NCBI GenBank assembly: GCA_963702845.1
Contig: OY969763.1
Span: 1,344,001-1,408,000 of the forward strand
DNA length: 64,000 nucleotides
From: an uncultured Verrucomicrobiae bacterium
Lineage (GTDB): Bacteria > Verrucomicrobiota > Verrucomicrobiia > Limisphaerales > Palsa-1400
Direction of reading: 5' to 3'
Of the stretch, positions 4,668-12,981 are shown piece after piece. The translations under genes were made by a program, and so were the position numbers. The notes below the pieces were generated by a model, which saw nothing but the letters and a program-made list of their open reading frames with translations, made no database searches and was not told the DNA's origin. Every line of letters starts with the position of its first letter. Position 1 is the first letter of the stretch.

Positions 4668-4721
4668 GCCCAAAAGCTGAATTGCTAACCGGGGCTATTT
4701 CTGGCAAACAATCTCGCTCTT

Positions 4722-6260
4722 ATGGTGAAAGTCTTTTGTAAATCGCTGGCCTTGGTTGCAATTGGGGTCGGCGTTTTTGTTGTCATGCCGCGGACGAGAA
4801 TGACCCCGTTGTCGGCTCGTTATCATTTCATCGGCACGTCTCAGCTCACGGCTAAAAATTACGATACACCCGCAAAGTCTTCAACCTGCCCAGTTCGGTT
4901 GAATACCGCGATCTCGTGTTAAACCGGTCTCGCCGGACAAATCGCCGTCATTCGATTTCCGAAAATTCTGCCGTAGTCCGCGCCGATGTTGAACGATCTC
5001 TTGCCAACGAATCAACTGGTCTTTTCGGCGTGCCCGGTGCCGGAGCCCGAATCTTTCGTCATCGCCGCTCGCACTTCCAACAGATCGCGCCGCAGTCTGG
5101 AAACAGAATCTCGGCAAGTCCTCCGACAATGTTAATTCAGTGCATCGTCCATCAAGAGGGCGAATGGTTGATCGTCGCGCGCGGCGCGGCGTTGAAAACA
5201 GCAGAAGACAAATTTACTGCCGAAATCCGTAAAAATCATCGTCCGGTGCCCGGCGTTGAAGGACACCATTCTCGAAGCAAACATCGATTGGCCGCGCTTG
5301 AGCAACGTTCCGGCATCGCTGCGCTGCCGTTCAAACCGGCCGTGCTCAAATCAAAGTCTCTCCGAAAGGCAACCATCTTCGCACCGAAGTTCACGCGCAT
5401 TATCCGCAAGCGATCGCATGGAAATCGCAGCAATGGCAACTGCCCACCGAAACCATCCACGATCCCTTGTGAGTTTCACCGCCGGACAAGACGTCGGCTG
5501 CGTTTATGAAGCCGTCGCAATTGGCGAGCGCATCGGCGAAAATCCGTTCACCAACCAATTTTTCCTCTGGGCCAATCTGAACCTTCCGTTCGAAACTTCG
5601 GCGCTGTTCCCGATGAAAAACGCGCAGCGCCACTTGCAATCACTGGGTCGGGAATTGCCTACCAGGTTCAATGCGGAATTGAAGAAGAACTATAATGGCC
5701 AATTGAAATACCTCGAAGAGAACAAACAATTGGTCTGGCAGGGGGTGCCAATCCTCGCTCCATTCGTCAAGCCGATTCACGAAAAAGCCGGAGACTTTTT
5801 TTGCGTTGGAACGTTCGCATTCAATCGCCAGGGCCGCGCCCGCCCGCCGGAACTCTGGTCGCAATTCAAAGGACGCACCGATCTGGTATATTACGACTGG
5901 GAAATTGCTGGTCCGCGGTTTGCTGCAGTGGCGCATGGTCAGGCCGTTGTTGCCGATCTTCCCTGTGAAACGCGCCGGCGAAGATTCAGTTCCGCGCATC
6001 ACAAAAACTAACAAGGTGTCACATACCCCCACGGCTATCGTGGACAGTTGGATCAGTGATTTGATCCCGGGCTCTCGCCATCAAATAAAATCACTCGAAT
6101 GGCAACGTCGTGACCGAGATGACTCGCAACAGCGCCACCGATTACACGGTCGTTCGCAGTTCTCAATTTGGTTTTACCGGCATCGAGTTGTTCCTGTTGT
6201 CCCATTGGCTTGCTGATACACATCCGATGGAAGTGCGACGACCGGCACGCCGGTATCAAT
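4722..6260 (+). pseudogene. Large hypothetical membrane-anchored protein, fragmented into several + strand ORFs
   Basis: N-terminal hydrophobic segment, then protein-like fragments in alternating frames (ILEANIDWPRL, KGRTDLVYYDWEI). Probably one gene with many indels. Confidence 0.5.
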
Positions 6261-9844: not shown

Positions 9845-11304
9845 CTACTCATTATGCGGAACTTTCACCGTGCCTCCTCCCACGAATTCGCGGATGACGG
9901 CGTCGCCTGGGATGATGTCGTAGCTGGTGACTTGGTCGCGCGTGAGGCCTTCGATGGAGTCGAGCAGCGTCTTTGACGCGTTTGTGGCGGATGTGGGCGT
10001 CGAGGAAGCCGGGGTAGGAATCCAACGCTTCGGCGGGCGGGAAGTATCCGCTCGGGCCGGAGAAAAATGGCTTGAGCGCGGGCAGGTCGAACGGGAAGCC
10101 GCCGTTGACGACGTGGTCGGCGGTGCCGTTGAGCGGGATGATGCTGAAGAGTTCGCCGGCGCGGACGTAATGCCAGTGCAACAAGGTGAGCAGGGGACTG
10201 TGATTGCGATGCTGCACGTCGCGCAACATGCGGCGGACGAGGCGCACGTCGGTAAACTTCGTCAACGCGCTTCGTGCTGCCGTCGCCTTCGTACATCGCG
10301 TTCTGCGTTTCGATGTAGAGCTTGAACTGCGCGCTCGCGTCGATGCCTTCGGTGATCGGCGGATACAAACCGTGCAAGCAATCGAGCAACAGGATCTGGT
10401 CCTTCTCGAGCTTCACCGGTTTGGTGGTGGTGCGGCGGCCTTCTTTGAAACTGTAAACCGGTTTCTCGATCGTCTCGCCGTTGAGCAACGCGACGAGGTG
10501 CTGGTTCAAGAGCTGGATGTCCAAGGCTTCGGGCGTTTCGTAATTGCGATCGTTGATCCAATCGGTCGGATGTTCCACGAGCGACCAAAAATAATCGTCG
10601 AGGTTCAACATCAGGAAACGCAGGCCTTGTTTCTGAAGACGTTCGGTGAGCTTGACGGTCGTGGTCGTCTTGCCGCTGGAACTCGGGCCGCTGACCCACA
10701 TCATGCGCAACTTGTCGCCTTTGTTGAGGCGGGCCATGACTTTGGCGGCGGCTTCGTCGAGGGACTTCTCGTAATTGCCGAGGGACTCTTCGACGAGCCC
10801 CTTGAGTTTGCCGCGTCGCACCACTTCGTTCAGGCCGGCGACGGTGTCGACGCCGCGGGCGCGATTCCACTCGAGCACCTTGCTCATGGCCGCGTCCGGG
10901 AAACCGTTGCCGACGAACGTTTCCTTCGTGACCGCGCCTTCGCGCAACCAATGGCGGCCCCAACGATAACAGGCGTAAGCATCGGCCGTGTTCTGGAAAC
11001 CGTAACTGCGCAGCACGTGCAGGACGGTGTCCTGGATCATCTCGATGGTCGGCGGGAAATTGGTGATGAGATGGTGCTCGTCGGAATTGAGGCCGACGAT
11101 GACGGCATCGGCGAGAAACCCGGCGAGGGCTTCATCGGAGTTCCACGTCGCGAAAAGTTTCTCGTTGATGCCGGTGAGGCAATCTTGTTGGAAGCCGCCG
11201 ATGGATTGGCCGGCGCGGAGGATGGCGCGGCGGATTTTGTCGGCATCGAATTTGACGAGCGCCCGATTGCGCTTTTGAACTTTGACAATGCGATTTTGAA
11301 CCAT
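9845..11304 (-). CDS. ATP-cone domain + uridine kinase/PRK-family P-loop kinase fusion (two frameshifts near 10265 and 9970)
   Basis: N-terminus VQKRNRALVKFDADKIRRAI (ATP-cone); GPSSSGKTT, LDDYF, YETPEALD, LDCLHGL. Continues in other frames as DVRLVRRMLRD..HR and DAVIREFVGGG...HNE-stop. Confidence 0.85.
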
Positions 11305-11454: not shown

Positions 11455-11823
11455 TCAAGGGACAGTCGGTGTTGCCTGCGGGGCGGTGTTAGGCTGCTTT
11501 TGAGCAGGACACAAAAGCAGGAACATCACGAGTAAAAGGTTGGCCAATGGAACTAAAAGCAAAAGAGCAACCCAACGATTCGTACCAGTCGAAGCGAGTC
11601 TGGGGATAATCGCGAAACGAACGAAGCAGACGACCAAAAAGAGAAATGCCACAAACCACAAGCCGAACAACAGAGTAAGCACAGGCAAATTCTCTTTGCC
11701 CCGGCCGGTGGAAAAATACAAAGCCCACCGAAAGGAAACCTGGAGAGCCATTGAAGCGATGACGCCAAGAATAAACCAGCCCAGAAAAGCTGCTCTACCA
11801 ATCGGCTTTGGAAATGTGCTCAT
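11455..11823 (-). CDS. Small membrane protein (DUF805-like)
   Basis: IGR..F, three hydrophobic segments, RL...G...W.ALLLLVPLANL...LLLCP. Confidence 0.7.
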   Translation of the reverse strand: MSTFPKPIGRAAFLGWFILGVIASMALQVSFRWALYFSTGRGKENLPVLTLLFGLWFVAFLFLVVCFVRFAIIPRLASTGTNRWVALLLLVPLANLLLVMFLLLCPAQKQPNTAPQATPTVP

Positions 11824-11910
11824 ATTTCTGGTGGTCTAATAATTAATGTACGACAACTGTTCGCATGTTTTCGAAAGATGAACAAGGCTTTTTGCTGCGG
11901 GCACGGAATG

Positions 11911-12036
11911 GGAAAGCGGCAGGGGAGTCGAACGTCGGCCTCGCATGCAGCCGCAGTCCAAAAGCTTCGCCGGTTTCGGGGCGCGGTGGATTGTCGCGGC
12001 AGCGTCTTGGAGTGCGCCAGTCCTCTGGCGCTTTCC
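11911..12036. repeat. REP-like palindromic doublet (inverted pair)
   Basis: ggaaagcggc...gccgcagtccaaa faces ttggagtgcgccagtcctctggcgctttcc; each has an internal hairpin with a (A/T)GTCCAA/CTCCAA tail. Confidence 0.65.
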
Positions 12037-12082
12037 CATTGGCGGTTCAGCGGAGGGTTTATCTATGCGCCGGATAGCATCG

Positions 12083-12271
12083 GGCGCACGCCGGAGTGTT
12101 TACGGCGCACAGTTAGAGGCAGGCGGCGTGAGTCTTGGAAAAACAGGCGTGGGCCGGAAGCATTACGGCGTGCCACTTAATAAAATCGGCGTGCGTCTTT
12201 ACATATAAGGCGTGCGACTGAATTTATCAGTCGTGCACCGGAAATGTTCCGGCGTGCGGTTATTCGCTTCA
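12083..12271. repeat. 21-bp-period array, 9 units, conserved GGCG(TG/CA) core with variable remainder
   Basis: Cores start at 12083, 12104, 12125, 12146, 12167, 12188, 12209, 12230 (gtcgtg) and 12251. Confidence 0.9.
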
Positions 12272-12360
12272 GCCAGCACCGCGAAGCCTTCGTCGGCCCC
12301 AACCAACCAGTCAACTAAGTGGTTGACTGTCAAGCGCAGGTTGATATTTTGAGCGGCCTT

Positions 12361-12981
12361 ATGGCTAAATCGGACTTCATGCCCAAACAGGACGGCGCTA
12401 TCGCCACCTGGCACGATTGCTTCACCCACGGTTTGCCCGGCCTCGCCGCCAAATACGGCATCAGTGCGGGCGATGTTGCTACCGCTGTCACCCATAATTC
12501 TACCTACAAAACAAATTTGACCGATGCCAACGCCAAGGTCGCCGCGGCCCAGGCCTCCGTGTCCGAGAAGGACGCCAGTCGCGACACCGCCGTCTCGTTC
12601 GCGCGCGCGGTGGGTCGCCGCATCAAGGCGCATCCGGATTACGACCCCGCCGACGGCGCGTTGCTTGGCATCATCGGGCACGATCGCACGGTGGACTTGC
12701 GCACGCGCGCGCCGCACTTGCTCGGGCGCGACCACGGGCGCGGCCGGGTGGAGTTGCGGTTCAAGAAGTCTTCGGCCGATGGCATCAAGGTTTATTGCAA
12801 GCGCGGCGAGGAGACGACGTGGACGCATATTTCGACGAACACGCGCACAAAGTTTTTCGATGAACGCCCGTTGTTGGTGGCGGGCAAGCCGGAGCTGCGC
12901 CTTTATCGCGCGCATTATATTTTGCGCGACGCGGACATCGGCGAGTACAGCCAGGAATTGGAAATCACCTGCGCGCCGTGA
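12361..12981 (+). CDS. Hypothetical protein: N-terminal helical bundle + C-terminal FN3-like beta-sandwich, no signal peptide
   Basis: MAKSDFMPKQD...W...F...L..LAAKYGI helices, RRIKAHPDY....G.LLGI linker, then VELRFKK..DGIKVY..RG...W.....T...F.D.RP....PE.R.YRA.Y strands. Confidence 0.8.
   Translation: MAKSDFMPKQDGAIATWHDCFTHGLPGLAAKYGISAGDVATAVTHNSTYKTNLTDANAKVAAAQASVSEKDASRDTAVSFARAVGRRIKAHPDYDPADGALLGIIGHDRTVDLRTRAPHLLGRDHGRGRVELRFKKSSADGIKVYCKRGEETTWTHISTNTRTKFFDERPLLVAGKPELRLYRAHYILRDADIGEYSQELEITCAP

Follow-up and report, generated by a model that had tools for sequence, protein, structure and literature searches.

A non-coding array linked to an unannotated protein family keeps a 21-bp period while its unit sequence is replaced

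Introduction

Helically phased tandem sites beside the gene of the protein that binds them are known from parC-ParR, tubC-TubR and sopC-SopB and from iterons with Rep. These centromere and iteron sites are conserved in sequence, occur together with an NTPase or a Rep protein and are carried on a plasmid or phage. REP/BIME and boxB-type repeats are intergenic, palindromic and tandem, and have one sequence genome-wide.

Four further systems resemble the locus studied here in one respect or another. KfrA of the IncU plasmid RA3 is an alpha-helical coiled-coil dimer that acts cooperatively on an operator of adjacent tandem repeats and autoregulates; it possesses an HTH, its five 9-bp repeats are sequence-specific, and it is plasmid-borne and linked to KfrC and ParAB (PMC7783346). 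TIGR-Tas systems consist of 36-nt units with two spacers and box C/D motifs, work with a Nop domain and are mostly viral (PMC12045711). VIPR combines GGY/NN units of 5 nt with a RAMP protein and is phage-encoded (10.64898/2026.04.26.720920). PARCEL repeats are coding, palindromic repeats of 25 residues (75 bp) inside ORFs (PMC2996958).

Here we describe a chromosomal locus in which a small gene follows an array of 21-bp units. A first-pass annotation of the DNA had proposed a new module made of a REP doublet, the array and an orphan gene for a helical, FN3-like protein. We show that array and gene recur together and that the period is kept while the unit sequence is not.

Results

A 21-bp-periodic array precedes a 206-aa protein gene

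The window, the whole stretch of DNA that was analyzed, comprises 64,000 nucleotides from an uncultured Verrucomicrobiae bacterium. The relevant features are:

11907..12040, no strand assigned: REP-like inverted pair; adjoins the array, not part of the module
12062..12271, no strand assigned: non-coding array of 21-bp period; nine units from 12083 and a decayed tenth from 12062
12310..12327, no strand assigned: short perfect palindrome; overlaps the -35 match, locus-specific
12323..12350, plus strand: sigma-70-like promoter match (TTGACT, 16 nt, TG-extended TATTTT); weak candidate between array and start codon
12361..12981, plus strand: gene for a 206-aa protein; helix, 55-residue helix with basic patch, C-terminal FN3

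As first described, nine units (12083-12271) follow each other at a period of exactly 21 bp with zero indels, and the suspected decayed unit does start at 12062. The six best columns of the array sum to 50/54, a value that never exceeded 36 when the region was shuffled 30 times. A scan of the own genome (periods 14-44, 7 units, 6 columns) gave seven clusters at period 21, one of them an ordinary coding coiled coil, one cluster each at periods 14 and 42, and none at other periods. Stops close all six frames of the window array, including a TAA at 12206, in agreement with the earlier statement that no ORF runs through it; the reported lack of cas genes was also confirmed (no cas neighbour, no Rfam CRISPR match). 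The ~14 nt outside the core had been regarded as free. It is true that spacing is kept over sequence, but palindromes had been missed. With the phase set to start at 12068, most units read as imperfect palindromes of 19 nt separated by 2-nt linkers. Where the core deviates for the only time (gtcgtg at 12230), the opposite arm carries a compensating change, so that the 'free' nucleotides are partly tied to dyad symmetry. Dyad pairing reached 0.61 (p 0.00 versus column-order permutation), with a covariation p of 0.025-0.06.

The REP-like pair (fold z -4.1) has 36 loose matches across the own genome. It is a dispersed repeat that occurs in relatives lacking the gene, and in a same-genus genome this flank and REP pair recur, but the 400 nt from there to the contig end are different DNA without an array. 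We therefore rejected the REP doublet as a component of the module. The promoter match is not above chance, with 2 sigma-70-like sites in 2.2 kb versus 1.2 expected, and no fixed promoter position relative to the array was found across loci (mean z 0.06-0.25). Among 305 loci, the palindrome at 12310..12327 is present only in the two that are this window.

Further upstream in the window, a DUF805 gene on the minus strand (11455-11900) lies between integron-cassette-like boundary sequences, and the piece 11837-11913 recurs in the own genome and in a same-genus genome. Positions 9865-11304 encode a fusion of an ATP-cone with a uridine-kinase-like domain that is also conserved in two relatives.

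Array and gene are linked across genomes and metagenomes

The protein has seven matches in its own genome, five of them full genes, one a copy with an internal deletion and one a fragment truncated at its 5' end, and a 21-bp array stands before all but the truncated fragment (6/7). These arrays end ~40-100 bp before the gene start and each family has another core. It had been proposed to search the flanking DNA of homologues for a 21-bp autocorrelation, and this signal was found. In a genome set (54 loci with at least 280 nt upstream out of 56; lags 8-49) and a metagenome set (80 loci, 77 full-length and 63 long enough upstream), both of which contain near-duplicates and neither of which includes Bacteroidota loci, though the family reaches Saprospiraceae, the best upstream period was 21 or 42 at 47/54 and 55/63 loci, respectively. 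The corresponding values were 5/51 and 5/64 downstream and, for the genomes, 10/46 far upstream. Mean upstream autocorrelation was 0.51 at lags 21 and 42, 0.45 at lag 63 and at most 0.34 at other lags from 5 to 65. Lag 42 scores as high as lag 21, which means that many arrays alternate two unit types.

In two multi-copy genomes an array was present at 13/13 and 8/10 copies, and both misses had misplaced starts. A further set showed arrays, some of them weak, at 16/20 regions, including 10/13 of a subfamily of 229-231 aa. Arrays contain 3-23 detected units, most often 8-11. About one gene in eight has no detectable array, and one intact own-genome copy carries 22-nt units. The 21-bp array is thus half of a recurring two-part module with the ~206-aa protein gene, and the proposal that the two belong together is borne out by their linkage in the own genome, in other genomes and in metagenomes.

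Eight further own-genome arrays were selected from the scans by eye; they stand alone or in front of gene stubs. An orphan array of 13 units resembling the window unit sits between two response-regulator genes with no partner gene (G000:C1:5103814-5104092, G000 being the own genome). More orphan 21-bp arrays with their own cores are found at 1071664, 181261 and 3794002 of the same contig, and the one at 181261 retains the leader of gene-linked copies. Behind the array at 2527802, which belongs to the 1298791 family, a remnant (G000:C1:2528109-2528290) has a frame ending like a classical WSDP-type FN3, which suggests a second helical-FN3 family using the same arrays. A ~305-aa relative with two tandem helical domains (L080, G026:C54) has a pure 42-bp array with dissimilar halves; this single case hints that the period may track protein architecture.

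The DNA between array and gene has features of its own in some groups. Gammaproteobacterial copies (L017, L023, L056, L059, L193, L195, L203) share a conserved GC-rich hairpin motif with a CCGCCGC core, 60-90 nt before the start codon and downstream of the array. In the longer subfamily (L070, L092, L094, P0162, P0260) a conserved Trp/Asp/Pro-rich leader of ~40 aa lies in frame ahead of the gene, between the array and the usual start.

The period is kept while the unit sequence is replaced

Among seven Methylomonas orthologues, the array shows one indel (42 nt) in 260 nt, and the adjacent spacer shows 10 indels in 383 nt, none of them a multiple of 21. Two more distant orthologues differ by 84 and 43 nt. 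At the level of sequence the arrays change quickly. The similarity of unit consensuses has fallen to the null level (0.27) once protein identity is down to 50-60%, several pairs at 74-84% identity are already at 0.26-0.36, and no universal unit consensus or shared motif was found across 58 arrays. Only a weak purine/pyrimidine component of 10.5 bp was seen (0.18 versus 0.10, relatedness ignored). Array spacing is therefore conserved while the unit sequence turns over fast, as the first-pass annotation had supposed when it postulated selection on spacing.

Substitutions in the array occur at about the synonymous rate (22% of sites versus 22% of third positions). This would also suit a neutral minisatellite that is inherited with the gene and in which slippage steps perpetuate the 21 without selection; expansions and contractions by slippage are visible and some genes are without arrays. 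However, a period of 21 or 42 is held across two phyla and across subfamilies at ~25-35% identity with the unit sequence completely exchanged. At none of the 117 loci of the genome and metagenome sets did lag 20 or 22 score best, and the array, unlike the adjacent spacer, is purged of small indels. A neutral repeat would also be expected to be lost from most lineages. We consider neutral inheritance improbable.

The array is non-coding

A period of 21 corresponds to seven codons, and a coding array, or a recently decayed heptad gene or leader peptide of the PARCEL type, had to be considered. Some arrays have an open frame and a few database proteins show translated heptads ahead of the domain. 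We followed the earlier proposal to compare codon positions in the arrays of relatives. In six same-length Methylomonas orthologues, two of which look identical over the array, polymorphic sites were spread 18/21/19 over the codon positions of the array, with no third-position bias, compared with 8/1/45 in the gene, and the orthologous arrays gain stops. The period-3 power of column conservation in 58 non-redundant arrays was 0.076 versus 0.10 expected; of three coding controls, two reached 0.25 and 0.21 and the remaining one, a very short sequence, reached 0.03. A synonymous-bias z above 1.64 was reached by 1/58 arrays. Open frames were found in 38/58 arrays on the sense strand (31-33 expected), but the excess was the same on the antisense strand (40 versus 33-34). 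Together with the closed frames of the window, these data led us to reject a coding or decayed heptad repeat, and the decaying 7-aa-repeat gene put forward in the first place is very hard to reconcile with them.

The protein is predicted to form an antiparallel coiled-coil dimer with FN3 ends

The gene is not an orphan, contrary to what had been assumed. Its relatives form 3,964 clusters at 50% identity, which databases name 'hypothetical'. No Pfam, NCBIfam or PHROG family was assigned, and 113 members were without a match in Pfam and NCBIfam. One of six proteins gave a single weak PADLOC match (Csa3, E 0.0055). A search for a link to DUF6261 gave no signal, and its controls were likewise silent.

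The protein model (pLDDT 91.5) shows helices at residues 11-32, 36-90 and 96-102 followed by a beta sandwich. Residues ~110-206 form a seven-stranded FN3 domain that matches an FN3 domain of integrin beta4 (Z 11.6, rmsd 2.0, 88 residues), and the entire match list of this half consists of FN3. The FN3 part of the predicted 'helical bundle plus FN3' thus stands; the N-terminal half, a helix-long helix-short helix arrangement, is not a compact bundle by itself. Its fold search gave generic matches (best Z 6.5), and an unmatched half need not be a new fold. TasR was found at rank 25 (Z 5.7, rmsd 3.0, 51 residues), tied with unrelated helical hairpins. No recognized DNA-binding fold, including HTH, was seen in the model or in the family and fold searches, and no Nop or RAMP fold stood out in the fold searches.

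Homodimer prediction scored 0.75, compared with 0.00 for the best of three controls; contacts agreed between runs by at least 97% and pLDDT was at least 87. The score mark was reached by 20/30 solved pairs and 1/23 single chains. In the predicted dimer the long helices run antiparallel around residues 61-63, and the protein is thus predicted to be an antiparallel coiled-coil homodimer. A conserved basic patch comprises R82, R86, R87, K89 and Y94, with R82 and K89 basic in 95-96% of proteins. Residues 66-92 are the only net-basic part (+4) of a protein that is near neutral as a whole (median net charge -2). The helix span G33-R82 measures 49 residues in 107/113 proteins at a mean identity of 34%. 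On the predicted model, and by arithmetic at the textbook 1.5 Å per residue, the two basic patches would be 68-74 Å apart. The corresponding length of 21 bp is 71 Å for B-DNA and 59 Å for A-form RNA, and the modelled spacing would match 21 bp of B-DNA. In the 229-231-aa subfamily the basic patch is preceded by a Pro/Gly-rich insert, yet the period is kept (10/13); judged by eye, this fits a ruler only if the insert is looped out.

The module is patchy, multi-copy and without a regular neighbour

The gene is present in 7/41 relatives, in 4/401 genomes of the phylum and in 16/151 genomes of a family of methanotrophs, and a single genome can hold up to 33 matches. In the tree, the Methylomonas clade stands among Verrucomicrobiota sequences and apart from other methanotrophs. 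A transfer is only suggested by this, given the weakness of the joining fork (89/88, open) and the long branch of the window protein.

Such a patchy, multi-copy spread is what one would expect if the array were a structure or recombination substrate for copying in trans by an integron integrase or by an HUH or other transposase, with the protein as an architectural helper and the module largely selfish. Similarity of related copies ends at or within ~12 nt of the stop codon in 12/12 pairs, and up to 200-700 nt of upstream DNA still aligns in several; these pairs were hand-picked as closest and not drawn blind. The own genome holds numerous dead copies and orphan arrays. No recurring neighbour or partner gene was seen among 77 flanking proteins (hand-chosen; on each side the closest ORF or the one after it, with each orthologous group represented once), which include surface-glycan, toxin-antitoxin and housekeeping genes, and this absence would suit mobility too. 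But a recombinase was not a regular neighbour either, and no terminal repeats, target duplications or shared end motif were seen around the compared copies. One Methylomonas locus is vertically inherited and was lost by deletion. Five different queries gave no gene match in plasmid, phage and viral collections, a search whose reach is close relatives. A GGCGTG-phased pattern occurs at 60 loci of viral contigs, 48 of them inside long ORFs, and none lies beside a clear homologue (best E 0.019). Copying in trans as the role of the array appears rather unlikely to us.

Several copies have conspicuous downstream sequences. The same hairpin repeat of ~50 nt follows three paralogues (G000:C1, downstream of 2347776, 2662529 and 1298174), and about ten copies of it occur in the own genome, directly before unrelated genes. 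Right behind one Thiodictyon copy lies a gene for a 1008-aa single-subunit (T7-type) RNA polymerase (L048, 2822-5845), and downstream of L037 a 460-aa ORF (4689-6068) has weak matches to ADP-ribosyltransferase families.

Folding without strand preference argues for DNA more than for RNA

Dyad symmetry is significant in 27/55 arrays and not in 28/55, and some arrays are pyrimidine-rich and asymmetric. Covariation is significant in 11/55; in a set of 42 arrays it was positive in 29 and reached p <= 0.05 in 10. These covarying hairpins would agree with an array that is transcribed, as a leader or as a separate RNA, and whose 21-nt units are bound by the protein to give an RNP scaffold or processed short RNAs, possibly guides. 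Two own-genome families have a conserved leader with a TTGAC-type promoter match upstream of the array, shared with another genome, and locus-specific repeats upstream of a coiled-coil dimer recall TIGR-Tas (PMC12045711). A soil metatranscriptome contig of 167 nt covers 11993-12112 at 99%; it is strandless and may be DNA, and the underlying expression search, with one run at a share of 0.07 and this one contig, says nothing on habitat or transcription.

However, folding is without strand preference: hairpin z-scores were -1.48 and -1.49 on the two strands (n=55; control -0.54). G.T pairs are not favoured over A.C pairs (379 versus 445 expected and 433 versus 479), and there is accordingly no G.U excess. 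Both findings argue for DNA over mRNA structure. Rfam matches were limited to two chance miRNA hits, the searches yielded no standout Nop or RAMP fold, the variable parts are not unique spacers in most arrays, and no own-genome targets of them were found. For the nine window units, the guide-target search gave one exact 15-nt match, a result also reached by 1/9 shuffle sets, and 25 shared 14-mers, where random genomic stretches had a median of 23. Neither the 15-nt match, which belongs to unit 3 (G000:3819586), nor the excess of 14-mers over column shuffles holds up against natural-sequence controls, and guide targets were rejected. We regard an RNA role of the array as unlikely.

Discussion

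The array is real, non-coding and gene-linked. It is apparently undescribed: our literature search, whose coverage leaves out subscription journals and bioRxiv supplements, found no account of such an array-gene module. The first-pass annotation had offered three options, of which a phased binding platform fits best, while the heptad gene is rejected and a repeat-spacer RNA, without support, is unlikely.

Our preferred reading, which we hold tentatively and with slightly less than even confidence, is that the array, as double-stranded DNA, is the binding site of the dimer encoded downstream of it, with one rod per two helical turns that reads the spacing and a loose symmetry. The module would be self-contained, chromosomal, often multi-copy and two-part. 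Its protein, according to the model, would be a two-fold symmetric rod of ~8 nm, an antiparallel coiled coil with one FN3 domain per end. Such rods might bind cooperatively along the array, at roughly one dimer for every 21 bp and all on one face of the DNA. The dyad symmetry of 27/55 arrays matches a C2 dimer. If the ruler reads spacing and a loose dyad and not a fixed sequence, the unit sequence could drift and slippage could homogenize it without the period leaving 21 or 2 x 21. As the simplest output, the gene's promoter would be autoregulated. The result may also be a nucleoprotein platform with the FN3 domains facing outward for a partner.

Several observations speak against binding to double-stranded DNA. 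The protein is near neutral and shows no recognized DNA-binding fold. Arrays without dyad (28/55), genes without array (~1 in 8), the copy with 22-nt units and the lack of a fixed promoter position also count against it, and covariation in 11/55 arrays fits hairpins or template switching better than plain binding to duplex DNA.

A bolder extension of DNA binding by the dimer, which we put forward as speculation and consider unlikely as it stands, is that the module represents a widespread class, either self-propagating or regulatory. Here a rod-shaped dimer without HTH would act as a two-turn ruler. It would polymerize on DNA (or RNA) arrays of any sequence so long as the period is right, each locus having an array of its own. 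The array would be a length-coded address, and the FN3 ends would display or recruit partners at fixed 7-nm steps. Units of leader, array and gene that end at the stop codon would move by an undescribed route.

The array provides a testable nucleic-acid partner for an unannotated family of ~4,000 sequence clusters, and the constraint on it is of an unusual kind: across phyla this non-coding element holds on to its period as its sequence is exchanged. Such arrays would also account for one frequent origin of erroneously called heptad 'hypothetical proteins'. If the ruler model is true, a new DNA-binding architecture, an antiparallel coiled coil with FN3 ends and no HTH, would read spacing, and a small natural part would be at hand for placing proteins at 7-nm intervals on DNA. 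The material for a test is small: one 23-kDa protein and a 210-bp fragment.

How does the module compare with known systems? Like centromere and iteron arrays, it has helically phased units (21/42) beside a gene. Unlike them, it has no regular NTPase or Rep neighbour among the 77 proteins examined, and genomes carry many unrelated arrays. REP/BIME and boxB repeats share its intergenic, palindromic and tandem nature, but the present arrays vary from locus to locus and go with a single gene family. CRISPR arrays have a constant repeat of ~23-50 nt, unique spacers and cas genes, whereas here the whole unit measures 21 nt with a core of 6 nt.

PARCEL also has tandem palindromic units that are patchy across phyla, but the array described here is non-coding. 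VIPR likewise places a tandem repeat of short period, with both constant and variable positions, next to one gene; in our loci lag 5 is at background, the protein has FN3 and a long helix, and there are no viral matches. Similar to TIGR-Tas, whose arrays have 5-15 units, locus-specific repeats lie beside one small gene, and the protein would be a coiled-coil C2 dimer, here by prediction. The module differs from TIGR-Tas in its unit of 21 nt, with lag 36 at background (0.32 versus 0.51 at 21), in the lack of a shared motif, in its C-terminal FN3 domain and in the lack of viral matches; as to a Nop domain, the helical half gave no more than the generic TasR match. Compared with KfrA, the model shows no HTH, an FN3 domain is present, the array has ~ten 21-bp units of free sequence, and the locus is chromosomal with no adjoining partition genes and no tblastn match in 72,556 plasmids. 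What both have in common is self-association through a coiled coil, which is predicted in our case (0.75 versus 0.00). By analogy, the module would most likely work as KfrA does on its repetitive operator.
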